64,000 nt of DNA from an uncultured Clostridia bacterium. Its GTDB lineage: Bacteria > Bacillota > Clostridia > Christensenellales > CAG-314. This document shows, piece after piece, positions 8,424 through 25,793 of the stretch. A program made the translations under genes and the position numbers. The stretch is taken from contig CANOTO010000004.1 in assembly GCA_947570215.1 (NCBI GenBank), forward strand, positions 92,522 to 156,521. Reading direction: 5' to 3'. Position 1 is the stretch's first letter. Each line of letters starts with the position of its first letter. Under the pieces are notes generated by a model, which saw only the letters and a program-made list of their open reading frames with translations, searched no databases and was not told where the DNA came from.

Positions 8424-8498
8424 GCGGGAGTGGCTCAGTGGTAGAGCGCTGCCTTGCCAAGGCAGATATCGCGGGTTCGAATCCCGTCTCCCGCTCCA
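8424..8498 (+). tRNA. tRNA-Gly (anticodon GCC), CCA encoded; integration target of the element
   Basis: Acceptor GCGGGAG/CTCCCGC, anticodon loop TTGCCAA. Its last 25 nt are repeated at 25769-25793. Confidence 0.92.
8474..8498 (+). repeat. attL core (3' end of tRNA-Gly GCC)
   Basis: GGTTCGAATCCCGTCTCCCGCTCCA, identical to 25769-25793. Confidence 0.9.
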
Positions 8499-8502
8499 AT
8501 AA

Positions 8503-8548
8503 ATAGGCATTTTTAGGTAAATTTAACCCGAAAATGCCTATTTTTTTG
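8503..8548 (+). terminator. Element-borne intrinsic terminator now closing the tRNA operon
   Basis: 11-bp stem ATAGGCATTTT/AAAATGCCTAT (8503-8513/8531-8541) followed by a T7 run. Confidence 0.7.
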
Positions 8549-8580
8549 CATTTTGGGGCGGTTTTTAGGTATTTTTAACC
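8510..8580 (+). repeat. Two 19-nt direct repeats next to attL (candidate integrase arm-type sites)
   Basis: TTTTTAGGTAAATTTAACC (8510-8528) and TTTTTAGGTATTTTTAACC (8562-8580) match at 17 of 19 positions. Confidence 0.45.
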
Positions 8581-8635
8581 ACTGTTAAACGTCAAATCGG
8601 GAATTTCGGGGGTACGTTTGGGGGTATTCCATACG

Positions 8636-9841
8636 TTACCAATCAAGTTTTTCCGATTCTTTAAGCAAAAATTCGTCGGGCAAGTCGGTATAGGTATCTT
8701 TAAGCACGCCGCCGGAATGTCCGACCATTTCGTTTATTGCGCTTTGCGCTACTCCGCAAGTTACGCAGTGCGTATAAAACGTCGTTCGTAAGTCGTACAA
8801 GATATGATTCGGCAGTATCGAATTAAACTTTTCCCGTAAGTATTTTAGACTTACCCAGTCTATCTCGCTTATTCCGTCTAAATACGGTTGCAGTAATTTA
8901 ATTATGGGAATACGTTTCGTCGCTATTTCGCCGTTTTTGCGTTTGCTGTTTTTCGCAACAATAAACTTACCGCAAATTTTCGCCGTTTTGTATTCGTTGG
9001 GACGAAGTCCCGTATACAAGGCAATGGCGAAGAATAGTTGATAGCGAGTACCTGCAGTTTTGTCTAACAACAGTTTTTCTTCTTCCAACGTTAGTGCCGA
9101 ACCGTGTTTGCGCTCATGTTGCTTATGGAAAACCATTTGTACGGGGTTGTGTTGTATCAGTCCGAATTTTACTGCGCAACCGAGTATTTGGTTTAACAGA
9201 CTGCGTACTTCGTCGGCCGTCTTGCCTTTTCCTTGTTCGGTAAAGTCGTCAAGTATCCGCTGAATGTCTATTGCGTTTACGCTGCGCAAATGTTTCTTCG
9301 CAAACGGTTCTTCCAAAGCCCGGCGAAAGCGCCATATATCGTTTTTGTACGTTCGTTCTGCAACTTTGCGTTTATGGAAGTGTTCAAACCAAAAATACGC
9401 AAATTCGTTGAACGTCGTCGGAACGGTTCTGCCGTTGTTAACCTTTATAGGTCTTTGCTGATCGGCTATTTTAAGTTTTTCAATGAATTTTTGTTTTGCT
9501 TCTTCGAGTGTTTTTGCGCTTGCCGTTACGTTGTAACCGTTGCGGCGGTACCGTATTTCGTAACTGCAACGGTAGCGTCCGTCGCAGCGTTTGCGAACGT
9601 GAGCGGTGCAGCCTTCCACTCGAAACTCTCTTCTGAATGTCTTTGGCATCTTTGAAATCTCCTTATCTGAAAATTTCAAAGGTCTGCAATAAACTGTTTT
9701 TTCATTAGATCCTGCGCTTTCCGTCAGTTCGGCATTCAGCGCGGCAATCTCCTTGGTAAGCCGCTCCCTGTCGGCTTGGTTGTTGGTAAAACTTAACATT
9801 ACCAACTTTTGCGATAGCAAAATCATTTGTTCTGCGTTCAT
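8636..9841 (-). CDS. int: Tyrosine-type site-specific integrase
   Basis: C-terminal catalytic region with LRPNE, HDLRTTF-like (YDLRTTFYTHC), GHSGG and a terminal Y (KDTYTD). Adjacent to the tRNA att site. Confidence 0.88.
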   Translation of the reverse strand: MNAEQMILLSQKLVMLSFTNNQADRERLTKEIAALNAELTESAGSNEKTVYCRPLKFSDKEISKMPKTFRREFRVEGCTAHVRKRCDGRYRCSYEIRYRRNGYNVTASAKTLEEAKQKFIEKLKIADQQRPIKVNNGRTVPTTFNEFAYFWFEHFHKRKVAERTYKNDIWRFRRALEEPFAKKHLRSVNAIDIQRILDDFTEQGKGKTADEVRSLLNQILGCAVKFGLIQHNPVQMVFHKQHERKHGSALTLEEEKLLLDKTAGTRYQLFFAIALYTGLRPNEYKTAKICGKFIVAKNSKRKNGEIATKRIPIIKLLQPYLDGISEIDWVSLKYLREKFNSILPNHILYDLRTTFYTHCVTCGVAQSAINEMVGHSGGVLKDTYTDLPDEFLLKESEKLDW

Positions 9842-9918
9842 AGTTACATTTCTCCTTGTGTATTATTCCACTTGCGTGGTAACACAGAGTATAGCGACTA
9901 TGAACGTTTTTTCAAGGG

Positions 9919-10251
9919 CTAATTCTTTGCGCCATCCACAAGGAAACGGGCGTAATTGATAAGCCCTTTCTGCGCTTCCGACCCAAGTTTGCTGCCGATT
10001 TCTTCGTACAGCATTAGCAGTTCTTCTTTGTCGGGTGTAAGCTCGTAGTTTGATACGCCAAATTCTTCATCTTCCGTTGTGGGTAGCTGCATAGCAACTA
10101 ATATTTTATTTAATGTATCAATTCTAGGGTACTTGACGTAGCCACAAAAAACATTGGTAATTGTGGATCGTTCGAGTTTAGTTAATCTTGCTAAATCATC
10201 GTAGGTTAAATGTAGTTCTTTTTTTCGTTTCTTTAATTGTTCCAAATCCAT
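9919..10251 (-). CDS. XRE-family helix-turn-helix repressor (cI-like)
   Basis: HTH segment LTYDDLARLTKLERSTITNV. GGAG lies 8 nt upstream of ATG 10251. The longer ORF-track start at 10314 lacks an RBS. Confidence 0.8.
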   Translation of the reverse strand: MDLEQLKKRKKELHLTYDDLARLTKLERSTITNVFCGYVKYPRIDTLNKILVAMQLPTTEDEEFGVSNYELTPDKEELLMLYEEIGSKLGSEAQKGLINYARFLVDGAKN

Positions 10252-10307
10252 ATTCAACGCTCCATATTGCAATAGTACCAAAATATAGACTTTTTGCAAA
10301 AAAACGC

Positions 10308-10347
10308 TTGACAAAGTCCCTACGATTAGACTATATTGAAAATAGTC
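10308..10347 (+). promoter_or_regulatory. Rightward early promoter with an overlapping palindromic operator
   Basis: TTGACA (10308-10313), 18-nt spacer, TATATT (10332-10337). A 19-bp imperfect palindrome GACTATATTGAAAATAGTC (10329-10347) covers the -10 box. Confidence 0.55.
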
Positions 10348-10506
10348 CCAAAAATGGGGTAAAAATAGCCTTGAAGTCTGCGGAATTCAAGTTTTGCAAA
10401 AGTATTCAATTTCTTGGTCGATTTTGATTATATCAAACTATTCCGCAAACTTCAAGCAGTTTACCCAATTATGGGAATATTTATCTGAAATAGGGAGCGC
10501 GAAACT

Positions 10507-10962
10507 ATGGACGAAAAGAAAGAATACACATTCAAAGTCCCTGCGGAGATTTTTTACACCAACGAAGGGACTTTATCTATTAGCATTAAAATATTAGCCA
10601 ACGACAGCAGTGTTCTCAAACGGATTCTCGCAGGCAAAACAATCGACGACAATAAGAGTTGTTTTGGAATGTACGTCCGCAACGACATAAATACGTTATG
10701 GCAAACTTTTGTTATGTTCAGCGGAATGTTTACTTTTACGGAAACGCCGCAACGTACCAAAGAAGAAATTACCGCCGAAGCGCTGGAACTTGCCGTGTTG
10801 CGGCTTTTGGATAAAGACGACGACCTTTGCGCCGTATGCGCAAGGCGTGAAGCTTGCACCAAAGAATCGAACGAACAGGGCGAAGCATTTAATAAGCCTA
10901 AGTGTAGCGTTTGCGTGGAGAACGTTAGCCGGTACTTTATGGAGCAAGCGAAAAACGATTAG
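10507..10962 (+). CDS. Hypothetical protein with a C-terminal CxxC...CxxC cluster
   Basis: 151-aa ORF with RBS-like GGGAG upstream. First gene of the rightward operon. No family recognised. Confidence 0.6.
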   Translation: MDEKKEYTFKVPAEIFYTNEGTLSISIKILANDSSVLKRILAGKTIDDNKSCFGMYVRNDINTLWQTFVMFSGMFTFTETPQRTKEEITAEALELAVLRLLDKDDDLCAVCARREACTKESNEQGEAFNKPKCSVCVENVSRYFMEQAKND

Positions 10963-10970
10963 CAGGTTTC

Positions 10971-11000
10971 GTACGCTGTACCTAACAGCGTACATCAATA
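10971..11000 (+). repeat. Hairpin plus conserved tail, copy 1
   Basis: 9-bp stem GTACGCTGT/ACAGCGTAC. The tail TAACAGCGTACATCAATA is repeated at 11348-11365 with 1 mismatch. Confidence 0.6.
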
Positions 11001-11025
11001 ATCAAAAAGTAAAAGGGGATAGTTT

Positions 11026-11316
11026 ATGAATGAAATTGTAGTTGAAGGTAAGATTGATTATTTAGACGTATGTAATGAGCACTATAATTGTACTTTTCGT
11101 GCTGTTCTACAGAAGAGCAAATCTTTTTGCTGTGGTTATAAAACTTTTGTAACTATTACTTATGGCTTAACGGTACACGGTTATCTTTGTAAGCCTGATT
11201 ATATCGATATAACCTACGACCGTTCTATCAGAATTACGGAAGAAGATTTCAAAGATTGGTTGTGCAACTATTTCAACTTGACTTTATCTGAACACGATTT
11301 AACTTTTTTCAATTAA
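11026..11316 (+). CDS. Hypothetical protein (96 aa)
   Basis: ORF with AAAGGGGA RBS. No family recognised. Confidence 0.55.
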   Translation: MNEIVVEGKIDYLDVCNEHYNCTFRAVLQKSKSFCCGYKTFVTITYGLTVHGYLCKPDYIDITYDRSIRITEEDFKDWLCNYFNLTLSEHDLTFFN

Positions 11317-11334
11317 CGTTTGTTTTTACTGTTC

Positions 11335-11365
11335 GTACGTTGTCGGTTAACAGCGTACACCAATA
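11335..11365 (+). repeat. Hairpin plus conserved tail, copy 2
   Basis: 9-bp stem GTACGTTGT/ACAGCGTAC (one G:U pair), followed by ACCAATA. Confidence 0.6.
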
Positions 11366-11743
11366 GAGTTTGGCATAGAACGGATAACTCTAAATATGTT
11401 TTCTTCTCCAAAGCGTCGTAGGTCGGCGACGATAAACAAACGGCTCGTTGCAGTTCTCAGTCTCGACAATCAGAACTGTATAATCAAAACTTGGTCGTGT
11501 AAGACGGTTAGCGGTGTCGTCCGGAAACATTACCGCCCCAAGGTAGATTGGCGACCTATATACAACAGCCATTATCAGCCTTGCGATAAGGGACAGGGCA
11601 GGTGTGTTGTGCGTTTTCCTAAAACAAACGTACACCGTTTGTTGGCGGCAAAGAACGGTTGCGCGGATGCAGCGCTATATAAAAGGCAACGAAGTTCGCG
11701 CCGGGAGAGCCGCCACTCCCGAACACGCGCGAAGCGGTGAAAA

Positions 11744-12268
11744 ATGGGTTACAGAATATTAGCAGTTTTAATAATTGCACTTGTGTTAATAGTCGTCTTC
11801 GTAATTCGGAGAACTGTAAAGAAAAAGCGCAAAGATGAAAAAGGCAGGATATATAAGACGACTGACGGATATTTAGCGGATAATCCTAAAAATAAGAAAA
11901 AGCGCAACGTAGTAGTCGTAGAGCAGCGCAAAAAGGACGGAGCGATAGCGGTTAGCAAGATATTCGGCGCAGATGAAAAATCGGGAGATTTTTATATTGA
12001 CGATTTAGAACTGAAACCGAGTGAACATAGTTCATTGACAAAGAATTCTCTTGTAGAACGGCGTGTGAAGTTTGGCGTTAAACGTAACGGTAGGCATACG
12101 CCAATTTATATTAGAGATTTGAAACCAACAAACGACAAACTCACAAAAAAGGAAATGCGGAAAGTCAATAAACAAAAAGGCGGAAAGACTGTAAAAAATA
12201 GGCGGACGTATAGAAGTACACGCAGTAATTGGAAGCAAGGGTTCAAGAATAAAAACAAAAGAAAATAA
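11744..12268 (+). CDS. Hypothetical N-terminally membrane-anchored, very lysine-rich protein
   Basis: One TM helix (ILAVLIIALVLIVVFVI) followed by a K/R-rich sequence to the C-terminus. Confidence 0.6.
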   Translation: MGYRILAVLIIALVLIVVFVIRRTVKKKRKDEKGRIYKTTDGYLADNPKNKKKRNVVVVEQRKKDGAIAVSKIFGADEKSGDFYIDDLELKPSEHSSLTKNSLVERRVKFGVKRNGRHTPIYIRDLKPTNDKLTKKEMRKVNKQKGGKTVKNRRTYRSTRSNWKQGFKNKNKRK

Positions 12269-12340
12269 AAAAAAAAACCGAGTCGGCTGTGAAGCAAGAC
12301 TCGGGGTGGGACATTCCGGAAATGCCCCTGCTTAATTGGC
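12267..12340 (-). ncRNA. Candidate ~70-nt small RNA, convergent with the upstream gene
   Basis: Minus-strand promoter (see next feature). Terminator with 7-bp plus 3-bp stem (12278-12304) and a U11 tail (12267-12277). No credible ORF. Confidence 0.5.
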
Positions 12341-12346
12341 AATTAT

Positions 12347-12375
12347 AGTATATGCCAATTTGAGCAAAAAGTCAA
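12347..12375 (-). promoter_or_regulatory. Near-consensus sigma-A promoter on the minus strand
   Basis: TTGACT (complement of 12370-12375), 17-nt spacer, TATACT (complement of 12347-12352), with an overlapping TATAAT. Confidence 0.55.
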
Positions 12376-12418
12376 CACTATTTTGAGAATTCATATAAGC
12401 AAATTTTAGGGGTGCGAA

Positions 12419-12664
12419 ATGAGAGCGGAACAGGTCGGGCAAATTATCGAAACGGAAGCGCAGAAGCCTAAAATAGGCAAAGTCGTTTATTACGGCGTAT
12501 GTAGCGTTTGCGGCGAGAAAATAGACGTTTCCAACAAGTTGGAATTTAATCAAAAAGAGTATTACGCAGACAACTTCGGTATTGAAAAAGTAGGCGACAA
12601 ATGGGTTTGCAAACAAGAAATACGGCTACAAAACTGCCCGTTTTGCGAGAAACCGCCGTTTTGA
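12419..12664 (+). CDS. Small zinc-ribbon-like protein (CxxC ... CxxC)
   Basis: 81-aa ORF with AGGGG RBS and two CxxC pairs (CSVC, CPFC). Confidence 0.55.
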   Translation: MRAEQVGQIIETEAQKPKIGKVVYYGVCSVCGEKIDVSNKLEFNQKEYYADNFGIEKVGDKWVCKQEIRLQNCPFCEKPPF

Positions 12665-12734
12665 GCGGTAAATTTGTCGGTTCGGTAAGTTATAAAGGCG
12701 GCAAACCGTTGGAATTTAAGGGAGTGTTCACACA

Positions 12735-12908
12735 ATGGCAAAATGCGAAATTTGTTGTAATGAATGTAATGGCGAAATTAAAATCGCAGCGTATAATCAC
12801 AGCGCAATAATTTGCGGTAAGTGCGCCGTAGATAAAGAAATAATAACAGACCCCGAAATAGTAAAAATAATCTGCAAAGCGGAAGGCTTTGAAAAGTTGC
12901 GGCAATGA
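12735..12908 (+). CDS. Small Cys-rich protein (57 aa, below the ORF-track cutoff)
   Basis: AAGGGAG RBS 10 nt upstream. Sequence MAKCEICCNECNGE...CGKC. Confidence 0.45.
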   Translation: MAKCEICCNECNGEIKIAAYNHSAIICGKCAVDKEIITDPEIVKIICKAEGFEKLRQ

Positions 12909-13072
12909 AAAAGTTTACTTTTGTTTATCAGCCGATTAGCGGCGGTTCGGATTCCGTAACGCTTTACGCAAAGAATTACGGTATTGCTATCAATAGATTC
13001 AAACACCAATATAAGTATTTGAAAATAATAAAAATTGTAAAGGAGAAAAAAGAAAATGGCAAAGAAGAATAA
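12905..13072 (+). CDS. Possible small protein (55 aa), ATGA-coupled to the previous ORF
   Basis: Open frame MKKFTFVYQPISGG.... No separate RBS. Overlaps the next gene start. Confidence 0.3.
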   Translation: MKKFTFVYQPISGGSDSVTLYAKNYGIAINRFKHQYKYLKIIKIVKEKKENGKEE

Positions 13073-14162
13073 TTCACGTTCTGCAATGGGGGGGGGCGTA
13101 ATAGTTCTCTCATTGTTGTTGCTTGCAGCAATTATATGCGGAGCGATAACTCACGGGTTTACAACGTGGACAACGTGCGGCTGCTTCGGACATAAGTACG
13201 GCGACGACGGCGTTTGCGTACGCTGCAAGGAAGCAAAGCCTACGGAGAAAACTGACGGCGCAGTCGTAGACAACGACGGCAACGTAATGGATTCCGACAA
13301 GGTTTACGCAATGCCTACGGGTATGACGTTTTCATCGGCAAAGCAACTCAACGCCGAGCCGTCCGAAGAAACTGAAAAGAGCGTAACCATAACGGCGACA
13401 ATCGAACCTGCCGACGCTACTAACAAAAACGTTGACTGGTCGGTTGCGTTCGTAAACGCAGACAGTACTTGGGCAAGCGGTAAGACCGTAACGGACTATA
13501 TAACGGTAACGCCGACTTCCGACGGTTCGCTTACTGCAACGGTAACCTGTAAACAAGCGTTCGGCGAGCAAATAGTCGTGCAATGCGTAGCGCAGGATAA
13601 CGCCGAAGCTTCGGCAAGTTGTACGGTAGATTATAGAAGGCGTGTTGAAAACGTAGCTGTTTCTATTGACGGTTTTATGAGCGGCGGTTTCGTTTCGGGT
13701 TCTATAAGTTTGTATACGGACAATGCCCCTACGAAAAACGTTTCTCGGCACGTAACTTACTCCGTAGGAACTGTCGGCGGCGACGAAGAAGTAATTATCG
13801 AATACAAGTTGGGCGATATAATTTACAGCCAAATGTCAGCGCATTTTTGTATGGGACACGATTGGAATACCTGTAAAGACGTTAATCACTTGTATTACCA
13901 ACTAAACCAAGACTGGCACCAAATAGGAAATACATTAACGACGGATATTTCGTTCTTAGAACCGATGTTCAAGTTTGTTCCTACAAATTACACGTCTGCA
14001 CTTAATAGTGCAAGAATAATTTTCAAAAATACTGTCGGCGCAATCGTATTTAGAATAACCTGCGGAGATTGGACGAAAGAATTATCGTTCCAGACCACCG
14101 TAGAAAACTTCAAAATATCCGTAACGAACGTTACGTTAAATCAAGGAACGTTAGAGTTTTAG
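13056..14162 (+). CDS. N-terminally anchored surface protein with a bacterial Ig-like (Big_2-like) domain
   Basis: AAGGAG RBS and a TM helix VIVLSLLLLAAIICGAI. The segment TATIEPADATNKNVDWSV...TVTPTSDGSLTATV resembles Big_2. A G9 tract lies at 13088-13096. Confidence 0.7.
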   Translation: MAKKNNSRSAMGGGVIVLSLLLLAAIICGAITHGFTTWTTCGCFGHKYGDDGVCVRCKEAKPTEKTDGAVVDNDGNVMDSDKVYAMPTGMTFSSAKQLNAEPSEETEKSVTITATIEPADATNKNVDWSVAFVNADSTWASGKTVTDYITVTPTSDGSLTATVTCKQAFGEQIVVQCVAQDNAEASASCTVDYRRRVENVAVSIDGFMSGGFVSGSISLYTDNAPTKNVSRHVTYSVGTVGGDEEVIIEYKLGDIIYSQMSAHFCMGHDWNTCKDVNHLYYQLNQDWHQIGNTLTTDISFLEPMFKFVPTNYTSALNSARIIFKNTVGAIVFRITCGDWTKELSFQTTVENFKISVTNVTLNQGTLEF

Positions 14163-14293
14163 ACGGCAATAAATGTACTTCTTTTAGTATTGCCGCTAAA
14201 ACGAACAAAATGCTTTTAGCGGCGATACGCCGTAAAAGTGCGTAATCGGGACACGGTACGCATATAGCCCCGAAACGGGGGAAGGAGTACATA

Positions 14294-15598
14294 ATGAGCA
14301 AAAATAAAACAAAGAGTAACAGAAGCAATGCAACGTTGTACGTCGTTCTCGTAATCGTGCTGATTGCAGTAATAGTTGGCGGAGTAATAACGCACGGCTT
14401 CCAAGATTGGACGGAACAACCGCGAGCGTATGTTTCGGATAAAATACTTTCTTCGGCGCAGCTACTCAGCTCAGACGGCAAGTCTGTTTCTGCAGGATAC
14501 CGTCCCTTGAAAGTCGGGGACGAAATGTCTAAGATTGCATACTTCGCAATCGACGTATACGGCAAAGCGCGCAATGAAATAGATTCTTTCAAACTATTTT
14601 CGTCAGGCGATGAAACAATAACAATCTTCCTATGGGAACGTTATCAAGGCGAATACAGTTTCGGAATAATAAACGGAACGTTGGCAGATAATTTTCCGCA
14701 TCTTGACGAAGATAATTTATCTCAATTAAGCAGTGCCGTATGGGGAACTTTCGAAGACTACCGAATTGATGAACATAATCCATATTTAGATTTGTATATT
14801 GGCGACCTTGATGCTCGCGAAATAAATTACGGTTATACTGTTGACAATATAGGAACTCTGCCTATTTACGTTCAAACCGTACTAACAGAATTGCCGCCCG
14901 CTCCTGCGAAAACGGGATATACGTTTACAGGTTGGTATACGGATGAAGACTGTACACAGTTGTATACGGAAGACTTTGTTAATTCGGATATTACGCTGTA
15001 CGCAGGCTTCCAAGCTAATTCGTACAGCATTAAGTTCAACGCCAACAGCGGCAGCGGAACTATGGCAAACGAAGCTATGACGTACGACCAAAGCAAGGCG
15101 CTTACTGCCAACGGTTTTACCAAGGAACACTACCAATTCAAGGGTTGGGCTACGTCTGCCGACGGCGAAGTCGTATACGCAAACAATGCCGAAGTCAAGA
15201 ACCTTACGGCAACCGACGGCGCGGTAATTGAGCTCTTTGCAGTTTGGGAACGTTCGGAAGTTTCCGTTACATTCGTATCCGAAGGAAATACGGTAGCTAC
15301 AACTTGGATAGCGATAGGCACAAAGGCGACGTTACCTAAAACGCCCGTTAAGGAAGGACACCTGTTCAACGGTTGGTACTACGAAGACGGTACCAAGTAC
15401 GAAACGCAGAATATATCCGAAGACATTACGCTTACGGCAAAGTTCAGTATTATCCGCTGCACCGTTACGTTCATAGTAGACGGCGAAGTTTATGCGGTAT
15501 ACGTCTGCGACTGGGGTACTTCCATTGCGCAAGCGTTGAACGGCGCGGGCGTTAACACTGCACTGTACAAGGCGGATGAGCATAGCCGAAATTTTTAG
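14294..15598 (+). CDS. N-terminally anchored surface protein with three Listeria-Bacteroides-type (Flg_new-like) repeats
   Basis: GGAAGGAG RBS and a TM helix LYVVLVIVLIAVIVGGVI. Repeats GYTFTGWYTDED, HYQFKGWATSADG and GHLFNGWYYEDG. Confidence 0.75.
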   Translation: MSKNKTKSNRSNATLYVVLVIVLIAVIVGGVITHGFQDWTEQPRAYVSDKILSSAQLLSSDGKSVSAGYRPLKVGDEMSKIAYFAIDVYGKARNEIDSFKLFSSGDETITIFLWERYQGEYSFGIINGTLADNFPHLDEDNLSQLSSAVWGTFEDYRIDEHNPYLDLYIGDLDAREINYGYTVDNIGTLPIYVQTVLTELPPAPAKTGYTFTGWYTDEDCTQLYTEDFVNSDITLYAGFQANSYSIKFNANSGSGTMANEAMTYDQSKALTANGFTKEHYQFKGWATSADGEVVYANNAEVKNLTATDGAVIELFAVWERSEVSVTFVSEGNTVATTWIAIGTKATLPKTPVKEGHLFNGWYYEDGTKYETQNISEDITLTAKFSIIRCTVTFIVDGEVYAVYVCDWGTSIAQALNGAGVNTALYKADEHSRNF

Positions 15599-15626
15599 TT
15601 AGGCAAGACTTGACTGTAAGTCTTGC
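15589..15626 (+). promoter_or_regulatory. Candidate -1 programmed ribosomal frameshift signal
   Basis: Slippery heptamer A_AAT_TTT (15589-15595) in the zero frame, just before stop TAG (15596-15598). A 7-nt spacer follows, then a 9-bp stem GCAAGACTT/AAGTCTTGC (15603-15626). Confidence 0.55.
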
Positions 15627-16325: not shown

Positions 16326-16338
16326 GAGAAGTGAAGTT

Positions 16339-18263: not shown

Positions 18264-18271
18264 GTGAACAT

Positions 18272-18430: not shown

Positions 18431-19713
18431 AAACTATAAAAAAGCACTTGGCGTTGAACTATCTATATTACGCTTTGCCGTGCATATTGAGCGTAGCGTA
18501 TTTGTTATTATTTGCCGCAGATTATACGACGTTGCAGTATTTAATAAACAGTTTGTACGCCAATTTATTCAACTTAATAATGCTGTCTTGCGCAATCGTA
18601 GCCGTCCCGAACTTTTGCCGTTTGGTATATTATACCAAACTTACGCTAAATTTGCCTAACGACGCATATTTGCCTGCAGCGGCAAACGAACGTTTCGGGT
18701 TCGCAGGCGGCGGCAAGTCGTCCAGTACGGCAATTCAAGCGTTTTTTGAAGCGGAAAAAATGCAGGAAGAAACGGAAGGGAAGTACAATTATATGCTTGC
18801 CAACCGTGAACGTTGGACAAGGGACGGGGAAGAATACAAACTCGCTAACTTTGACCGAATAGAGAAGTCTGTTGAGTTTTGGAACGCGCACCCCGAGTAT
18901 ATTCCGTATTTGGTAAGCGATTTAGAGATTATAGCGCCGGACGGAAGAAAGTCGATGTTCTTTACCCGTGAGCATTTGGAGCAGGAAGAATGGCTACCAA
19001 TATGTTTCCTGTTGGCTGACGAAGGCGGTACGCTAATGCCGCAGGACGAATATTCAGACCGTCCGCAAAGAATGGTAACTTTTTTCCGTCTAATACGTCA
19101 GTTCGGAATACGCGCTTGTATATGCGAACAGAAGAAAGACGGAATACTAATAAACGTCAGGGCGGTTCTCGGCGGAACCGTGCTTTGTTTGGGACAGCGC
19201 AACGCTTTGCTTCCGAACTTGCTTTTATCCGTCATAGCCTTTCTCAAACGCTTGTTGCCTAAAACTAAAAACAATCCGAAATTAGGCTTGGTGATAGAAA
19301 AATTAAGCAACTTTGCCGCTTGTTTGGGCTTTCGTATATGGGACCAGTTATTTTTCAGAACAATGGACTTCAAAGAGTTTGTGCCGCCTGAAAAAATTAA
19401 AATCGTTTGCACGAATAAGTTACCGTTCTATTACGACGATATGGCATACGCAGACTTATATCTTGCAAAGGATAAAACGCCGAAAATAATAGAGCAGAAA
19501 GGACGACCGACAAAGGGTACGCCGATGGGCGACGCAATGCTTAGATTGTGTACAATCGAAGAACAGAATTTGAAAGACAAAGAAGAAGTAAAGTTGCACA
19601 GTAAATTGAAAGTAAGCAACGGTATTAAATCTGAAACGCTGAAACAATTCGATTTGGACAAAAAGTTAGAACAGCAGAAAAAGGCGCAAAACGACGGCGC
19701 AAAAAAATCTTAA
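18427..19713 (+). CDS. Membrane-anchored P-loop NTPase (Zot/pI-like assembly ATPase or FtsK/TcpA-like translocase candidate)
   Basis: Two N-terminal TM helices, Walker A GFAGGGKS (aa 91-98), Walker B FLLADE (aa 194-199) and a charged coiled C-terminus. Confidence 0.65.
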   Translation: MKTIKKHLALNYLYYALPCILSVAYLLLFAADYTTLQYLINSLYANLFNLIMLSCAIVAVPNFCRLVYYTKLTLNLPNDAYLPAAANERFGFAGGGKSSSTAIQAFFEAEKMQEETEGKYNYMLANRERWTRDGEEYKLANFDRIEKSVEFWNAHPEYIPYLVSDLEIIAPDGRKSMFFTREHLEQEEWLPICFLLADEGGTLMPQDEYSDRPQRMVTFFRLIRQFGIRACICEQKKDGILINVRAVLGGTVLCLGQRNALLPNLLLSVIAFLKRLLPKTKNNPKLGLVIEKLSNFAACLGFRIWDQLFFRTMDFKEFVPPEKIKIVCTNKLPFYYDDMAYADLYLAKDKTPKIIEQKGRPTKGTPMGDAMLRLCTIEEQNLKDKEEVKLHSKLKVSNGIKSETLKQFDLDKKLEQQKKAQNDGAKKS

Positions 19714-20121
19714 TAACGAAAGACACTGCGGCGGCAAACCGATACGTACTGCTTCGCTTATAAGTTCAACTCGCAGAGTTAGTTGGGAATTGGAAAAGCA
19801 TATTGAATATGTAGTTGCAAGGTTATATTTAGGAATCGACAATGCAAAAGGCAAAAACATTAACGACGACACGAAATAATATTTTTCGTTCCAACTGGTT
19901 GGGACGGAAAATTTATTCGGGGCGGCGTTACGTGTTGTGGTTGCATTATCGAAAAAGAAACTTGCAACGACAAAACAAATCGCTTTTCCAATTCCAAACT
20001 TCACGATTGAGCGAAAAGTTACGTTTCGGTAAAGACTTGGTAAAGAGAAAAACCGCATAAAACGTAAAAAAGGGGGTTGCGGGGGCTTGCCCCCGACGTT
20101 CGGAAAAAAGTTTGGTACCAA

Positions 20122-20391
20122 ATGGGAAGATTAGTTCTAACAAGATTTAACAAAAGAACTTGTAAGGTTGAGCAGCTGACATTGGAAAACGTAAATTTAT
20201 CTGCACACTATATTGACAATTTCGGCAGACCTACAACGCTGATTCACTTAATTGCAGATAACCCCGCATGCGTACAAAAAAGTTACATAATAACGGAAGT
20301 AACGGACGAACGATTAGTCGAAGGTATACATTACAACGCAAGCGAAGCAGCGCAAAAATGGTGGGATAAGTATGAAAAACAAGAAGAATGA
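20122..20391 (+). CDS. Hypothetical protein (89 aa)
   Basis: ORF from ATG 20122. The ORF-track TTG at 20077 lies inside a GC hairpin. Weak RBS. Confidence 0.45.
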   Translation: MGRLVLTRFNKRTCKVEQLTLENVNLSAHYIDNFGRPTTLIHLIADNPACVQKSYIITEVTDERLVEGIHYNASEAAQKWWDKYEKQEE

Positions 20392-20496
20392 AGTATTGCC
20401 GGGACAACTGTCAATCTGGGATAGTCCGTTCTATGACATTTTGATGGGGGGGGGTATCTCTAACAGAAAATACGGAACAGGGGGAAGTTAAAGACG

Positions 20497-20694
20497 ATGA
20501 AAGTAAGGTTAATGGGAACGAAACGGGAATGCGAAATAATGCAAGATTTCTTTCGGAAGAATTTACAGAACGGTAACGGTTATTCTGTGTCAAGGCTTTA
20601 TTCGAATAGGGGCAGTACGGATATGTATCGGGTGTACGTCGAATTTAATATGCCTTCCGATACTTCAAATTTTTTGCAACTAAAAGGCGGCTGA
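20497..20694 (+). CDS. Hypothetical protein (65 aa)
   Basis: ORF with G-rich RBS. No family recognised. Confidence 0.5.
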   Translation: MKVRLMGTKRECEIMQDFFRKNLQNGNGYSVSRLYSNRGSTDMYRVYVEFNMPSDTSNFLQLKGG

Positions 20695-20696
20695 AA

Positions 20697-20864
20697 ATGA
20701 CGAAGAAGTATGTGCAAGTGAAAATAAATATTCCGACGTCTTATAGAAGCGTAATCGAGTATTGCGACAAACTGTCTACGCAGCGTATACTTTCTGCTCG
20801 CATTATCCGATTACTTTCGGACGACTTAAACAAAAGAAAAAAGGAAGAAAATACGAATGTTTAA
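20697..20864 (+). CDS. Small hypothetical protein (55 aa), overlaps the methyltransferase start
   Basis: MTKKYVQVKINIPTSYRSVIEYCDK.... 8-nt overlap with the next gene. Below the ORF-track cutoff. Confidence 0.4.
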   Translation: MTKKYVQVKINIPTSYRSVIEYCDKLSTQRILSARIIRLLSDDLNKRKKEENTNV

Positions 20865-22728
20865 TTACCAAAGCAGCATATTGGACGAACTAATAGTAGA
20901 CAACTTCGCCGGGGGCGGCGGAGCAAGCACGGGTATAGAACTCGCAGTCGGGCGTCCCGTAGATATAGCGATCAACCACGACCCCGACGCAATCGCCATG
21001 CACAAGGTAAACCACCCGTTTACGAAGCATTACCAAGAGAGCGTTTGGGATATAGACCCCAAAAGAATTACCGAAGGGCGACCAGTCGGCATTGCGTGGT
21101 TTTCTCCCGACTGTAAACATTTCAGTAAAGCAAAGGGCGGAAAGCCCGTAGACAAGAAGATAAGGGGCTTAGCGTGGATAGCGTTGCGTTGGGCAGGAAC
21201 TGTCAGACCGAGAATAATTATGCTCGAAAACGTCGAAGAGTTCCAAACGTGGGGACCGGTTAGACGTGGTAAGCCTGTTAAGAGCAAGCAGGGGCAGACG
21301 TTCCGCAAGTTTGTAGGCCAACTCGAAGCGTTAGGCTATAAGGTAGAGTATAAAGTCTTGCGGGCTTGCGATTACGGAGCGCCTACGATTCGCAAACGGT
21401 TTTACTTAATAGCCCGTTGCGATGGGCTGCATATCGTCTGGGCGGAGCCTACGCACGGCGAAGGCAGAAAGCCGTATCGGACGGCTGCGGAGTGTATAGA
21501 CTGGTCGTTACCCTGTCCGTCCATATTCGGACGTAAAAAGGAACTTGCCGTTAATACGCAGCGGCGTATAGCAAAAGGTTTAGACAAGTTCGTAATAAAG
21601 AACCCGAAGCCGTTTATTATGCAAATGAACTTCGAGAACGCAGCGCAAGACGTAGACAAGCCGTTATCTACTCAGACGGCTGTAAACAAACATTTCGTTG
21701 TAGAACCGAAGTTCACGCCGTACATAATGAGCAATAATACGAATAACGCCACGCACTCGGTAAAAGAACCGTTGCCGACAGTTACTACTGGCAACCGCAA
21801 TTTCGTCTGCGCTCCGACGTTGGTACAGTACCACACGGAAACAAGCGCAAAAGAAACTCGTGGGCAGGACGTAAAGCAGCCGCTCCGAACGGTAGACGGT
21901 TCGCCGAGATACGGTTTGCAAGCGGCGTATTTATCCAAATATTTCAGCGGCGAAAAGCAAGCGGGCGCAGACGTACAAAGCCCAATGCCTACGGTTACGG
22001 GAATAGACCATAACGCTGTAACGGTTTGCTATCTATCCAGCAGACATGGCGACGGAAGCGACGGCAGGGGTAAAGACTTAGCCGAACCTGCGCCGACTGT
22101 TACGGCAGACTGCCACGAACATATTATTGCGGCTAACTTACTGCGTTATTATGGTGGCGAAGAACATGCAAGCGATATGGATAAGCCGATAGCAACCGTT
22201 ACAACGTTGCCAAGACATTATTTGTCTGAAAGCCACCTATGCGTATTCCAAAATCATATGGACTGCAAAGGCTTGGACGAGTCATTTCCGACGATTACAC
22301 AGGCGTTGAAGTTCGGGCAAGTCAAGACGTATCTGTGCAAAATAGATTCCGCGCAGAACTTAGGCAACTGGGATAAAGTAAGATGTCTGCTAAACGAATA
22401 TGCAGGTTATTCGATTGCCGACGATGAAATACTTATACTCGAAATAAACAAGGTGCAGTACTTCATTTACGACGTGGGAATGCGAATGTTAAAGGCAAAG
22501 GAACTAAAACTTGCACAAGGCTTCCCGACAGATTACTGTATCGACATAGAAAGCAAAATAGGCAAGAAATACAGCGAAGCAAAACAAATCGCGCGGCTCG
22601 GCAATGCGGTTTGTCCGCCGGTTGCTACGGCGTTGGTAAAAGCGAATTACATAGACACAGTAGCTAAGCCGCTCGTAACAATGGCTGCACTGAATGAACA
22701 TTTACAAAGACGTATGGCGAAGAGATAA
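20857..22728 (+). CDS. DNA (cytosine-5)-methyltransferase with an expanded repeat region
   Basis: Motif I FAGGGG, catalytic SPDCKHFS, motif VI ENV, QGFP and GNAVCPPV. Seven ~35-aa P-x-x-T-V/I-T modules lie between motifs VIII and IX. Confidence 0.88.
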   Translation: MFNYQSSILDELIVDNFAGGGGASTGIELAVGRPVDIAINHDPDAIAMHKVNHPFTKHYQESVWDIDPKRITEGRPVGIAWFSPDCKHFSKAKGGKPVDKKIRGLAWIALRWAGTVRPRIIMLENVEEFQTWGPVRRGKPVKSKQGQTFRKFVGQLEALGYKVEYKVLRACDYGAPTIRKRFYLIARCDGLHIVWAEPTHGEGRKPYRTAAECIDWSLPCPSIFGRKKELAVNTQRRIAKGLDKFVIKNPKPFIMQMNFENAAQDVDKPLSTQTAVNKHFVVEPKFTPYIMSNNTNNATHSVKEPLPTVTTGNRNFVCAPTLVQYHTETSAKETRGQDVKQPLRTVDGSPRYGLQAAYLSKYFSGEKQAGADVQSPMPTVTGIDHNAVTVCYLSSRHGDGSDGRGKDLAEPAPTVTADCHEHIIAANLLRYYGGEEHASDMDKPIATVTTLPRHYLSESHLCVFQNHMDCKGLDESFPTITQALKFGQVKTYLCKIDSAQNLGNWDKVRCLLNEYAGYSIADDEILILEINKVQYFIYDVGMRMLKAKELKLAQGFPTDYCIDIESKIGKKYSEAKQIARLGNAVCPPVATALVKANYIDTVAKPLVTMAALNEHLQRRMAKR

Positions 22729-22738
22729 AGAAATTGAA

Positions 22739-23608
22739 ATGAGTAAACCGCATTATCAGACAAGTTTTTTAATACTGGATAAAATCGAAAAAGCGGTGGA
22801 ACGCGTGCAGTTGATTAAAAACGTTATAAGCGAACCGCTATGGGTAGCTTATAGTGGCGGCAAAGATAGCGTTGTATTGAAGTGGATAATAGAGCAAAGC
22901 GGCATTCCTGCCGAATTCCACTATAATGTTACAAGCGTTGACCCGCCTGAATTAGTGCAATTTGTTAAGTCGCAGAAAAATATTAAACGAGATATACCGC
23001 ATTATGATAATGGTTCGCCGATGTCAATGTGGAATCTGATACCAAACAAAATGATACCGCCTACACGTGTATTTCGTTACTGTTGTGAAAAGTTAAAAGA
23101 AGCGAGTGGTAAAGGAAGAATAACGGCAACGGGAGTTCGTTGGGCGGAAAGCCCTAAAAGAAAGAAAAATCAAGGTGAAATAACTGTATTTCGCAAAAGA
23201 GAAATTGCAAAGTTATTAAAACTCTTTCCGGAAGCCGAAGCATTAGATACAGAACGGGGCGGATACATTTTGAATTTAGATAACGATAGCAACCGACGTA
23301 TGGTTGAGCAGTGTTATAGAACGAGCAAAACGTTAATCAATCCAATTATAGACTTTTCTACAAGTGATATTTGGCAGATTATAGGCGGCGAACATTTAGA
23401 TTATTGCGGACTTTATGACTGCGGATATAAACGTTTGGGTTGCATCGGTTGTCCAATGGCTTCTATAAAACAGCGTAAACAAGATTTTTTGCGTTATCCG
23501 CAGTATAAAGAGTTCTACATAAATGCTTTTGATAAAATGTTGCTTCGTTTAACAAAAGCACAATGGAAGAGCGGCGAAGAAGTTTTTGACTGGTGGGTGA
23601 AAATATAA
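22739..23608 (+). CDS. PP-loop ATP pyrophosphatase of the PAPS-reductase/DndC-like family
   Basis: SGGKDS PP-loop (VAYSGGKDSVV) and a C-terminal Cys cluster CGLYDCGYKRLGCIGCP. Alternative start at 22694. Confidence 0.8.
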   Translation: MSKPHYQTSFLILDKIEKAVERVQLIKNVISEPLWVAYSGGKDSVVLKWIIEQSGIPAEFHYNVTSVDPPELVQFVKSQKNIKRDIPHYDNGSPMSMWNLIPNKMIPPTRVFRYCCEKLKEASGKGRITATGVRWAESPKRKKNQGEITVFRKREIAKLLKLFPEAEALDTERGGYILNLDNDSNRRMVEQCYRTSKTLINPIIDFSTSDIWQIIGGEHLDYCGLYDCGYKRLGCIGCPMASIKQRKQDFLRYPQYKEFYINAFDKMLLRLTKAQWKSGEEVFDWWVKI

Positions 23609-23609
23609 A

Positions 23610-23924
23610 ATGAAAATCTACACAATCGACAATCACGACGGACATATTAAAAATTGTCAAATTAAAGATATGTTAGAAATGGCGTTACCTGAAGGAACCG
23701 ACACGGCGAATATGACGGACGAAGCGATTATTCAGAAAGCAACGTGGGTGCAGATATGTGGCGCAGATACAGAACGTTGTCCGAATTGCAAATATTATAG
23801 CCATTATAACGGAAAAGAGTATTGCAGCGTAATGCACTTGCCAAAAGCGCAGTTGTTACCGCCTGAATTTAAGAAATATGGTTGTTGTTTCTACGTGGGC
23901 AGAAAAGGCGGGAAATTAGGATAA
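23610..23924 (+). CDS. Cys-rich hypothetical protein (104 aa)
   Basis: CPNC...C...CC pattern. Tightly packed between the neighbouring genes with 1-nt gaps. Confidence 0.55.
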   Translation: MKIYTIDNHDGHIKNCQIKDMLEMALPEGTDTANMTDEAIIQKATWVQICGADTERCPNCKYYSHYNGKEYCSVMHLPKAQLLPPEFKKYGCCFYVGRKGGKLG

Positions 23925-23925
23925 A

Positions 23926-24654
23926 ATGAAACTCGGAGATTTTGAAACAAACAGAATATATAACGTTGACTGCTACCAAGCAATAAAGCACTTGCCGGAT
24001 AGCTGTATTGACCTTATAATTACCGACCCACCATACGAACAAGACGTGGCTCACAGTTCTGGCGCATTCGGGATAGATAAGAAATTGAACTATAAACAAA
24101 TAGCGGACATTTCTTGCGGTATCGATTATTCAATATTGGACGAGTTTGTCAGAGTACTCAAACGTATAAATCTGTATATATGGTGCAGTCGTCGGCAAAT
24201 TCCCAAGTTAATAGACTATTTTGTCGCACAACGTAAATGCCGATACAATATTATTACTTGGCATAAATCTAATGCGATTCCTGCGGCGAATAACTGCTAT
24301 ATGCCCGATACGGAATACTGCCTGTTCTTTCGAGAGCGTGGCGCAAAACTTTACGGAACGCCTGCAAGTAAAAGAACGTATTACATTACGCCGCTAAACG
24401 TAGCGGACAAAAGACGGTTTGGACACCCTACAATAAAGCCGTTAGAGATAATACAGAACTTTGTTATCAATAGCAGCGTAAAGGGAAGTGTAATTTTTGA
24501 CCCATTCGCCGGGAGCGGAACAACGGGAGTTGCTGCCAAAAACAATGACCGACAATACATATTGTTTGAAAAGGACAAAACGCGTTACCTGCAGGCGGAA
24601 AATCGCCTAAATAACATACAAATCGACGGACAGATGACGTTGTTTACAATGTAA
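23926..24654 (+). CDS. Beta-class N6-adenine (or N4-cytosine) DNA methyltransferase
   Basis: Motif IV DLIITDPPY precedes motif I FDPFAGSGTTGVAA (the N6_N4_Mtase order). Confidence 0.85.
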   Translation: MKLGDFETNRIYNVDCYQAIKHLPDSCIDLIITDPPYEQDVAHSSGAFGIDKKLNYKQIADISCGIDYSILDEFVRVLKRINLYIWCSRRQIPKLIDYFVAQRKCRYNIITWHKSNAIPAANNCYMPDTEYCLFFRERGAKLYGTPASKRTYYITPLNVADKRRFGHPTIKPLEIIQNFVINSSVKGSVIFDPFAGSGTTGVAAKNNDRQYILFEKDKTRYLQAENRLNNIQIDGQMTLFTM

Positions 24655-24801
24655 CTTAAAAAAAGTGCCGTTTTTGCAAAAAATAGGCATTTTAAGCAAA
24701 AAAATAAGCGGCAAAGCCAAACACTTTACCTCTATACAAAACGCCGATTGTAGGCGAACGATTTTAACAATTTAACGACCGAATAAGGAAGTTTTTACAA
24801 A

Positions 24802-24963
24802 ATGAGCGCGAAATCTGAAAAATGGAAAAGAGAAAACGCTTTTTATCTGTCCGACAAGTGTAGAATAGCGTTAAATAAGAAATGTCTAAACTGTACGAAC
24901 GTTTGCAAGCAATCTCGCAGAGCTTTGTTGGTTGCTTGTCCTGATTACATTAAAAAGGAGTAG
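24802..24963 (+). CDS. Small Cys-containing protein (53 aa)
   Basis: AAGGAAG RBS. Sequence MSAKSEKWKRENAFYLSDKCRIALNKKCLNCTNVCKQ.... Below the ORF-track cutoff. Confidence 0.4.
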   Translation: MSAKSEKWKRENAFYLSDKCRIALNKKCLNCTNVCKQSRRALLVACPDYIKKE

Positions 24964-25396
24964 ACGGCGTATAAGCGCCTATACAACTTAATAAATGCAG
25001 TTCTACCCACGACGTTGTACGTCTGCATTTCAATCTAAAACGTATCGGCTAATGGTAAGTCCGCCGGGAGAGCGTGGCGACAAACAGGACTTCAACAGCG
25101 TAGGTGCAGCGCTATAAAAACTCGTAATAGGTCGGTTGCTTGTGTGGGTGCCGTCCGAAGTTCCCGGCAAGCAAGGGGTAACAATTCGGATAGCCTTTGA
25201 AAGCGACGGGGTTCCCTTCTGGGTACACGTCTTTTTTTCATTGTCCCAATTTACTGGGACATTTCTGCTCTGGAGAAGCCCACAGGGTACGCAAACTGCC
25301 GGGAAAAGTCAATAGTTTTTTGATATGTTTTTCTCTAACCTGCAGAAATGTCAATGTTTGTCCCTTTCTTTTGGTAGCGGTCGTGCTGTGGAAGTG

Positions 25397-25505
25397 TTGG
25401 CAAGTGGTAAAGTCGTCTTTTGACTTTTCCACTTGTCAATACGTTTTGTGGTAAACTGCTTAACGGCTAAATAGCGGAATCGGCTCGGAAGCAGTTTTCC
25501 ACAAA
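25397..25505. repeat. Two adjacent long hairpins sharing a GTGG-T-AAA / TTT-T-CCAC core
   Basis: Hairpin 1 spans 25397-25439 (18 paired positions, including 1 T:T mismatch and 1 G:U pair). Hairpin 2 spans 25445-25505 (about 16 bp, the same T:T mismatch, 28-nt loop). Confidence 0.7.
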
Positions 25506-25683
25506 TCCATCAGCATAAGACGGAAAGGGGGTTCGGGGGAAAACCGAACGTACGACGGGAAAAGTCTGGAAAAATTTTGGACGTGAATTTTTTCAAAAAA
25601 CAAACAAAAGACTTGCTACATTGCAAGCCTTTTGAAACAGTTTATTTTGACCTTTGATTGTTGGGGGTATGTTGGGTTTTTAA

Positions 25684-25738
25684 TTGATATACACAATATA
25701 TTGTGGTACAATGTCTAAAAATTCCACAATATATTGTG
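25684..25738 (+). promoter_or_regulatory. Outward-facing near-consensus promoter with two copies of a 14-bp palindrome
   Basis: TTGATA (25684-25689), 17-nt spacer, TACAAT (25707-25712). CACAATATATTGTG occurs at 25692-25705 and 25725-25738. Confidence 0.5.
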
Positions 25739-25768
25739 TTTTTGAATGTCTGGGCAAAGTTTAATCGT

Positions 25769-25793
25769 GGTTCGAATCCCGTCTCCCGCTCCA
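25769..25793 (+). repeat. attR core (copy of the tRNA-Gly GCC 3' end)
   Basis: Identical 25-mer to 8474-8498. No 5' tRNA half lies upstream. Confidence 0.9.

Follow-up and report, generated by a model that had tools for sequence, protein, structure and literature searches.

A tRNA-Gly-integrated element of a Clostridia bacterium as a probable inovirus-like prophage without a recognised replication gene

The window analysed here is a 64,000-nt stretch of contig CANOTO010000004.1 from an uncultured Clostridia bacterium (positions 92,522 to 156,521), within which a 17.3-kb segment with an integrase gene lies between two copies of the 3' end of a tRNA-Gly(GCC) gene. The segment carries none of the genes by which a tailed phage or a conjugative element is usually recognised, which raises the question of whether it is mobile at all and, if so, what kind of element it represents. 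A preliminary description, made from the letters alone, left the choice between a cryptic inovirus-like prophage and an undescribed element type; the former has since gained support through an ATPase that seems distantly related to the Zot/pI proteins of inoviruses, and the latter keeps some weight. As set out below, the segment is a site-specific mobile element, and it is probably a temperate, inovirus-like prophage of the kind termed 'atypical', a non-tailed virus that would assemble at the membrane and that carries no recognised replication initiator (Rep). The lineage is barely covered by the phage collections searched, INPHARED and IMG/VR.

The boundaries of the element, its attachment (att) sites and the two genes next to its left end are as follows.

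8424-8498, + strand: host tRNA-Gly(GCC), the integration target, still intact after insertion (ARAGORN; Rfam tRNA, 74 bits)
8474-8498, + strand: attL core, a 25-nt exact direct repeat identical to the 3' end of tRNA-Gly(GCC)
8636-9841, - strand: tyrosine integrase, 401 aa (phrog_1 integrase, E 1.1e-32, residues 25-399; Pfam Phage_int_M and SAM_3)
9919-10254, - strand: XRE/Cro-CI type repressor, 111 aa from the ATG (Pfam HTH_26 and HTH_3; phrog_3 transcriptional repressor)
25769-25793, + strand: attR core, the second copy of the 25-mer
25793-25820, + strand: terminator that originally closed the tRNA array (12-bp stem plus T-run), directly after attR and shifted 17.3 kb by the insertion

The 25-mer GGTTCGAATCCCGTCTCCCGCTCCA is present in two exact copies in the window, and a search of 100 shuffled sequences gave 0 matches to such a repeat even with three mismatches permitted. 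The target tRNA is the final gene of an array of eight (7640-8498); counting one copy of the core, the element extends from 8499 to 25793 (17,295 bp), and its base composition is not distinguishable from that of the flanks. The catalytic motifs R...YxxR...H...Y are visible in the integrase sequence. The direct repeat, the terminator immediately after its second copy and the pairing of a tyrosine integrase with an XRE repressor beside attL had all been described beforehand, and each was borne out, the last by both Pfam and PHROGs. The same description had proposed that relatives should have an empty site, with tRNA-Gly followed directly by the terminator at 25794, and that a circular attP junction should exist; both have now been located in public data.

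The empty site was sought in species-representative GTDB genomes with a junction pattern composed of the tRNA-Gly body, the core and the attR flank. One metagenome-assembled genome (MAG) was returned, MGBC159553, labelled 'uncultured Eubacteriales' (L015), a related species with conserved upstream synteny; it has the same tRNA array, and its tRNA-Gly(GCC) runs straight into the terminator and some 50 nt of attR flank as known from the window, an arrangement that represents an empty attB. For the window's own species no such site was obtained: a look-up of the downstream GNAT gene gave only short contigs that carry the right end of the element or break at the core, and contigs with the upstream gene end inside the tRNA array. 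No exact match to attB turned up in JGI metagenomes, nor any to attP in these metagenomes or in IMG/VR. The attP junction comes from a look-up of the exact integrase sequence, which led to contig L020 (Logan SRR29686425, 15.8 kb), a variant element 87-98% identical to that of the window and assembled in circularly permuted form. There, one 25-bp core links the integrase end with the right arm, represented by the 53-aa gene and the methyltransferase, and the sequences on its two sides agree with the element sides of attL and attR; the junction is attP, either from an excised circle or from a tandem array. A distant lineage, L029, likewise has attP order around another tRNA-3'-like core and lacks a full tRNA, and lineage L004 abuts tRNA-Met. 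Near-identical copies of the element occupy the same site in several ENA samples, and the exact ATPase and integrase sequences are found on 31 and 34 contigs, respectively. All four att configurations (attL, attR, attB and attP) exist, which establishes the segment as a site-specific mobile element.

Further sequences of interest are seen around the right end. A degenerate copy of the att core lies just downstream of attR (25862-25886), with 17/25 matches, a level reached by 1.65% of random windows, and two more are found in L015 at +67 and +168 nt after tRNA-Gly (18/25 and 21/25 matches); these copies look like scars of earlier integrations at tRNA-Gly. A 24-nt imperfect inverted repeat (CACAATATATTGTG palindromes, 25683-25747), 20 nt from the attR core and present at the attP of L020 too, is a candidate arm-binding site for the integrase or binding site for an excision factor.

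The nature of the element is indicated mainly by a set of membrane protein genes in its centre, which ends in a P-loop ATPase and can be listed as follows (TM, transmembrane).

13056-14162, + strand: 368-aa N-anchored surface protein with an Ig-like middle part, the latter common to a 339-aa protein of L016
14294-15598, + strand: 434-aa anchored protein with three Flg_new (Listeria-Bacteroides) repeats (Pfam Flg_new, 5.9e-32)
15756-16325, + strand: 189-aa N-anchored protein, a member of the conserved block (TM 9-27; homologues in L003, L004, L016 and L032)
16339-18135, + strand: 598-aa protein, the proposed hallmark, with a signal peptide, a beta-rich ectodomain and a C-terminal TM anchor (pIII-like topology)
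18135-18263, + strand: 42-aa protein with one TM segment (6-24), conserved in L001, L003 and L004; candidate coat or assembly protein
18272-18430, + strand: 52-aa protein ending in KK-x-W, with two hydrophobic segments and with conservation in L001, L003 and L004; candidate major coat protein, its layout resembling Orf5 of Propionibacterium phage B5
18427-19713, + strand: putative Zot/pI-like morphogenesis ATPase, 428 aa, with two N-terminal TM segments, Walker A GGGKSS and Walker B LADE

A framework for judging such an ATPase is provided by Roux et al. (2019, Nat Microbiol, PMC6813254), in whose survey pI was the only conserved inovirus marker and 30% of inovirus species were 'atypical', with an N-terminal TM domain, some of them possibly separate virus groups. 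[quoted passage not shown] The window ATPase has hydrophobic segments at residues 13-31 and 42-60, which appear as N-terminal helices in its AlphaFold2 model and give it two TM domains of the N-terminal type. Immediately upstream lie the short TM proteins of 42 aa (one segment) and 52 aa (two segments), which are conserved in all lineages examined, and the 25-bp att repeat is part of tRNA-Gly, with the integrase beside it. Pfam gives no match for the window protein itself; an affinity to Zot is reached at the level of its family only.

This affinity was traced through searches with the ATPase family. Only 23 homologues were found at E<1e-3 among 5.8 billion proteins, and the two most distant of these (30% identity) carry Pfam Zot above its cut-off, with 31.2 (P0022) and 28.6 bits against 20.3; Zot is matched in the same register by 11 of the 18 family members, with the cut-off exceeded by those two alone. 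A profile search of 1.84 billion cluster representatives yielded 235 relatives, and when 100 representatives of this superfamily were compared with Pfam, Zot came out on top with 20, followed by nSTAND3 (6) and AAA_25 (3); the commonest PHROG among the same 100 is 'Zot-like toxin' (17). The hidden Markov model (HMM) of the family singles out the gene I protein of M13 among all proteins of M13 and B5 (18 bits), in an alignment that covers the segment from Walker B to the arginine (LLVLDECGTWFN...FLHARKLGWDIIFLVQD...). In hhalign, the score is 74% against M13 pI and only 8% against the ATPase of B5 (Orf8), a bona fide inovirus. Foldseek with the ATPase model, which is of mediocre quality (predicted local distance difference test, pLDDT, 71), gave weak matches with E values of 0.03-0.2, and the named ones are Zot proteins of Inoviridae. 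The 428-aa protein would be a distant relative of Zot/pI, remote as the link is, and Zot/pI would be the only specific affinity of its rare superfamily.

The genes around the ATPase form a block that is conserved well beyond the window. The lineages examined comprise the window, L001/2, L003, L004-6, L020, L028 and, in part, L027. The full order of 189-aa, 598-aa, 42-aa, 52-aa and ATPase genes recurs in L003, L004, L020 and L028, with sizes of about 190, 600, 42 and 53 aa for the first four; L001 keeps the 598-aa, 42-aa, 52-aa and ATPase genes, has no match to the 189-aa gene and carries a homologue of the basic 174-aa protein in between, and L027 shows the right-hand part of the block only. 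Across at least six lineages sharing the Rep-less architecture the ATPases are 55-78% identical. A minus-strand integrase and an XRE repressor are present in the lineages in which the left end is covered (L003, L004, L020 and L028); at the left end of L001, the XRE gene alone was identified. Downstream of the block come small conserved soluble proteins and then variable DNA-modification genes. For the 598-aa protein, 194 or more homologue clusters were counted in MAGs of Clostridia type, none of them annotated, and its AlphaFold2 model is of good quality (pLDDT 88.1); Foldseek found no match below E 0.01 for this model in PDB and BFVD, and no known fold is recognised. The 434-aa Flg_new gene is inserted within the structural block and, among the lineages examined, occurs only in that of the window and in L020; it is probably an accessory gene for host range or adhesion.

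More distant relatives combine part of this block with a replication gene. In L016 (an 8.4-kb contig), L018 and L032 (IMGVR_UViG_3300027374_000002, the sole IMG/VR relative found), homologues of the 368-, 189- and 598-aa proteins are encoded in the same order, and they are followed by a small TM protein, a multi-TM P-loop ATPase of about 700 aa and, directly after it, a rolling-circle Rep. This Rep belongs to PF23343 (REP_ORF2-G2P; 46 bits against a cut-off of 27.8) and has the HUH motif HFHGIF; a 115-aa protein, a candidate single-stranded-DNA-binding protein, is also encoded. In the window clade, an integrase, a repressor and DNA methyltransferases are found in place of Rep, and tblastn with the Rep of L016 gave no match there. 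The two groups thus differ in the rolling-circle Rep and the ~700-aa ATPase of the distant relatives, and have the 368-, 189- and 598-aa genes in common. The ~700-aa multi-TM P-loop protein (e.g. L018:2689-4815) has no Pfam or PHROG match, yet it occupies the same position in the gene order as the window ATPase. Relatives that share structural genes and carry a phage-type Rep are counted in favour of an inovirus-like nature of the window element.

Conserved non-coding DNA is a further property of the family, and in the window it is concentrated in two regions.

11317-11743, + strand: conserved non-coding patch, 81-92% nucleotide identity to L003, L001 and L028
24964-25768, + strand: gene-free right arm of 805 bp, with a structured element of about 330 nt and the inverted repeat 25683-25747

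The preliminary description had noted about 1.6 kb of hairpin-rich non-coding DNA, and this holds: the three largest gene-free stretches (805, 427 and 363 bp) sum to 1595 bp, out of 2909 non-coding bp in 17270, and the right arm folds as single-stranded DNA far better than shuffled sequences (z = -6.9). The ~330-nt element (about 24990-25320) has 75-90% nucleotide identity in all seven lineages and is the best-conserved sequence of the family, above any protein; in L001 it is 90% identical, as compared to 59% for the ATPase at protein level. RNAalifold predicts 11 helices with eight pairs showing compensatory changes, where shuffles gave 3.7 +/- 1.2 (0 of 500 reached 8) and slid controls 1-5, although the statistical power of this comparison is limited by its resting on seven related sequences. 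Many G-U pairs indicate the plus strand, and the Rfam scan of the element gave no match apart from the tRNA. Such a structure would look like the packaging signal or complementary-strand origin of a filamentous phage; a non-coding RNA and an origin for double-stranded DNA (dsDNA) are the alternatives. In the conserved patch on the left, a 114-aa open reading frame (ORF; 11396-11740) is probably spurious. The equivalent place is taken in relatives by an element-borne tRNA, tRNA-Ile(TAT) at L020:7958-8032 and tRNA-Lys(TTT) at L028:3262-3336. The motif GCAGCGCTATA(T)AAAA is common to this patch (about 11668) and the right-arm element (about 25106).

The remaining features of the element are given here for completeness.

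10255-10506, no strand: divergent regulatory region that separates the repressor from the rightward operon
10507-10962, + strand: gene that opens the rightward series, encoding 151 aa with a C-terminus rich in Cys; it is conserved in L001 and L003 and without a Pfam or PHROG match
11744-12268, + strand: 174-aa protein, anchored in the membrane at its N-terminus, its tail extremely basic (50 K+R), homologue in L001; candidate DNA-binding or DNA-condensing membrane protein
12419-13072, + strand: three small conserved proteins, two of them Cys4 zinc-ribbon-like (81 and 57 aa) and one of 55 aa (tblastn in L001, L003 and L004; weak zinc-finger matches)
20077-20864, + strand: small soluble proteins (104, 65 and 55 aa), of which the last is conserved in all lineages
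20857-24654, + strand: DNA-modification block, comprising a C5 cytosine methyltransferase (623 aa), a PAPS-reductase-like protein (304 aa), a Cys-rich protein (104 aa) and an N4/N6 methyltransferase (242 aa)
24802-24963, + strand: 53-aa Cys-rich basic protein, 77-81% conserved in L001 and L003

All plausible genes other than the integrase and the repressor are on the + strand, as had been stated at the outset, with a count of about 21-24 in place of the 25 or so given then. The best promoter-like site in the element (TTGACA-18-TATATT, 10308-10337, + strand) lies in the divergent region, and the repressor faces a single rightward operon. The 55-aa protein at 20077-20864 appears ribbon-helix-helix-like by eye. 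Assignments in the DNA-modification block are based on Pfam and on the PHROGs for DNA methyltransferase and PAPS reductase. A DNA-modification gene is found downstream of the ATPase in every lineage, its type varying between Mom and C5, SAM or N4/N6 methyltransferases (L029:2805-3263, L004:11801-12562 and L028:12250-14608), and this position looks like a variable cargo slot for anti-restriction genes.

When every ORF was compared with Pfam and PHROGs, 17 of about 26 had no match of any kind, and the earlier statement that virion and conjugation hallmarks are missing withstood these profile searches. No terminase, portal, capsid, tail, holin or lysin/endolysin was found among the element's ORFs, and no relaxase, VirB4, coupling protein (T4CP) or FtsK-type translocase; a single weak PHROG match to be weighed here, phrog_341 (E 0.0065), falls on the Ig-like segment of the 368-aa protein. 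A tailed prophage (Caudoviricetes) was rejected on this basis, the large terminase subunit, portal, HK97-fold capsid, tail and lysis genes all having been sought in vain. A standard integrative and conjugative or integrative and mobilizable element was rejected likewise, with relaxase, T4CP/VirB4 and FtsK-type translocase absent from the window ORFs. That the element fits neither of these classes, as proposed before, is therefore upheld.

With these parts in place, a life cycle can be proposed for the element as a Rep-less inovirus-like prophage. Recombination by the tyrosine integrase took place between the attP core (25 bp) and the 3' end of tRNA-Gly(GCC), which has the same sequence; the tRNA was thereby regenerated and the terminator moved 17.3 kb downstream. 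Once repression is lifted, the element would excise, and the 189-, 598-, 42- and 52-aa membrane proteins together with the Zot-like ATPase would assemble and export particles across the cytoplasmic membrane; release would proceed without lysis, and no lysin or holin was found. Adsorption may be mediated by the anchored Ig-like and Flg_new surface proteins, and the methyltransferase/PAPS-reductase block may shield the double-stranded form of the DNA from host restriction by modifying it. The folded ~330-nt element of the right arm could serve as a cis-acting signal for packaging or replication. As there is no rolling-circle Rep, HUH motif or other replication gene in the element, replication must rely on host functions or on a protein that was not recognised.

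Comparison with known phages places the element close to the 'atypical' inoviruses in several respects. The ATPase is its sole recognisable hallmark, with Zot as the closest Pfam family among its relatives and with N-terminal TM segments, and an att repeat lies in a tRNA next to an integrase. As in 'atypical' inoviruses and in phage B5 (Paulinoviridae, from a monoderm host), TM proteins of 30-90 aa adjoin the ATPase and a large protein with a signal peptide and a C-terminal anchor is encoded upstream; the order in B5 is Orf5 (coat), Orf6 (485 aa), Orf7, Orf8 (ATPase) and Orf9 (405 aa). Unlike these phages, the window element has no replication initiator, is about three times the size of B5 (17.3 against 5.8 kb) and adds three anchored surface proteins and the four-gene DNA-modification block; unlike 'atypical' inoviruses, its ATPase stays short of the Zot threshold, and neither IMG/VR nor INPHARED yielded it. 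Pf4-type prophages of Pseudomonas resemble it in being temperate, with a tyrosine integrase, a repressor and a tRNA-Gly site, and are released chronically without lysis. They differ in their rolling-circle initiator, single-stranded-DNA-binding protein, pI with a C-terminal TM domain, diderm hosts and genome size of about 12 kb.

A number of observations weigh against an inovirus-like prophage. The window ATPase itself has no Pfam or PHROG match at E 0.1, a PDB sequence search with its profile returned nothing, tblastn of the ATPase and its Zot-positive relative P0022 against the INPHARED phages gave no match, as for the rest of the family, and a pattern search of IMG/VR with the ATPase alignment found none. 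The links to Zot are remote and mostly confined to the segment from Walker B to the arginine, where generic P-loop similarity might conceivably suffice to explain them. Rep, which Roux et al. list among the accompanying genes, was not found in any ORF of the element by Pfam or PHROGs, nor did a scan of these ORFs for HUH motifs return any, and the ~700-aa ATPase of the Rep-bearing relatives is not detectably homologous to that of the window. The 598-aa protein is unlike any known pIII in the Foldseek comparison with PDB and BFVD, and the C-terminus of the candidate coat protein is just weakly basic. A genome of 17.3 kb is large in comparison to cultured inoviruses, which have roughly 5-12 kb, and DNA methyltransferases make more sense with a dsDNA genome.

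A dsDNA genome is the premise of the explanation ranked second, after the inovirus-like prophage, and considered credible though less likely: a plasmavirus-like (or pleolipovirus-like) temperate virus, integrated in a tRNA, replicated by the host and leaving the cell as a pleomorphic lipid vesicle. The vesicle would be studded with the 368-, 434-, 189- and 598-aa proteins and its DNA condensed by the 174-aa protein, whose basic, anchored character would suit a nucleoprotein of this type; the methyltransferases and the Mom gene of L029 suit a dsDNA virion as well. The model is Acholeplasma virus L2, whose 12-kb dsDNA genome has every ORF on a single strand and lacks Rep. Its DNA is copied by the replisome of the host, starting at intergenic origins; related prophages sit in tRNA genes, and the virus buds from the cell without lysing it, a life-style that the window element would share; according to the ICTV profile of Plasmaviridae, L2 has solely its integrase in common with other viruses (PMC12662186). 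In its genome (L13696), two envelope proteins with signal peptides, ORF13 and ORF14, come first in the run; next are ORF1 (591 aa, hydrophobic in a C-terminal stretch), ORF2 (81 aa, two TM) and ORF3 (312 aa, hydrophobic segments at the N-terminus plus a P-loop; GGGKS, LILDEF, LLRHQGF), and then the origin, the integrase and attP. In topology and order, ORF1, ORF2 and ORF3 (246-3216) correspond to the 598-aa protein, the small TM proteins and the ATPase of the window; by eye, ORF3 has a Walker B-x-RHxGF-x-SQ pattern in common with M13 pI and the window ATPase. L2 and the window element are alike in being Rep-less, in having an integrase and no lysis genes, and in their local order of a large anchored protein, small two-TM protein, N-anchored ATPase and non-coding DNA with attP; they differ in that L2 has a wall-less host, its integrase on the same strand as its other genes, and unrelated envelope and hallmark proteins. 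The sole sequence link is a weak profile match of the ATPases, in which hhalign of the window superfamily against 21 homologues of L2 ORF3 gave 81% (E 1.2e-5, 115 columns, from Walker A to the RH motif); such a value between two P-loop profiles is no proof of specific kinship, single sequences reach 13%, and the ORF3 family matches generic AAA models only. Blastp of all element proteins against L2 gave no meaningful match, DnaA boxes are not enriched and no perfect box lies within the element. Pleolipoviridae (HRPV-1, FJ685651) also combine a membrane protein, a C-anchored spike with a signal peptide, small membrane proteins and a P-loop NTPase, but have archaeal hosts and no sequence similarity beyond Walker A (hhalign of the ATPase against VP8, 19%, Walker A only); this value and the 8% for the B5 ATPase calibrate the L2 score. 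The 598-aa family resembles neither L2 ORF1 nor HRPV-1 VP4 (0.5% in hhalign for the latter). Pleolipoviridae combine Rep-bearing and Rep-less genomes around one structural module, which the present family recalls. Against a vesicle stand also the apparently walled, Clostridia-type host, through whose wall enveloped budding is hard to picture (known plasmaviruses infect wall-less Acholeplasma), and the Rep of single-stranded-DNA-phage type in relatives with the same structural genes.

That the element is not a virus at all seems improbable. It would then be an integrative island or satellite, a cassette of surface proteins and methyltransferases whose ATPase serves secretion or DNA transfer in the manner of FtsK/TraB, or which depends on a helper phage. 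It has no replication gene and no recognised capsid gene, much of its coding capacity is devoted to surface or anchored proteins and DNA modification, and pI-type ATPases belong to the FtsK-HerA superfamily (PMC6813254), all of which would agree with an island; however, neither the window protein nor the 100 superfamily representatives show any FtsK_SpoIIIE, relaxase, VirB4 or T4CP signal (FtsK_SpoIIIE and VirB4 families being absent among the Pfam matches of the latter), and Zot leads. An invariant five-gene membrane block with tiny hydrophobic proteins is, moreover, typical of membrane-assembled viruses, and the same structural genes occur with a phage-type Rep on the 8.4-kb contig and others. 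A decayed, immobile prophage, in which the direct repeat is a relic, is highly improbable: the missing Rep and the degenerate att-like scars downstream of attR would be explained, but all ORFs are intact, the 25-nt cores are identical, the Rep-less architecture is kept in the at least six lineages mentioned at the ATPase identities given, attP junctions are seen in two lineages, and near-identical copies occur in many samples. A broader interpretation, also put forward only tentatively, is that the element and its relatives form an unrecognised lineage of membrane-assembled, possibly enveloped pleomorphic viruses of walled gut Clostridia, with an ATPase that bridges L2 ORF3 and Zot/pI. The module of such a lineage (189-aa and 598-aa proteins, tiny TM proteins and N-anchored ATPase) might be paired either with a rolling-circle Rep in small genomes or with an integrase and host replication, in the manner of Pleolipoviridae. 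If this is true, the 'atypical' inoviruses with N-terminal TM domain would form a virus group of their own, to which L2 alone among cultured viruses would be related.

Within the gut virome, phages that have no tail and are released chronically are charted least of all, because the markers used by prophage finders are missing from them. The family described here is a case in point, as its ATPase and 598-aa protein escape Pfam, PHROG, PDB and BFVD, and IMG/VR gave one distant relative, yet the exact ATPase and integrase sequences occur on some 30 contigs each. The 598-aa protein, with its many homologue clusters, is offered as a hallmark gene by which the family can be recognised. With this family, a Zot-type virus that lacks a replication gene becomes open to testing. 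The family also carries a strongly conserved and folded 330-nt cis element, and it suggests that inovirus-like elements may be connected with Plasmaviridae, an orphan family. For the host, acquisition of the element would likely alter both the repertoire of surface proteins and the pattern of DNA methylation.

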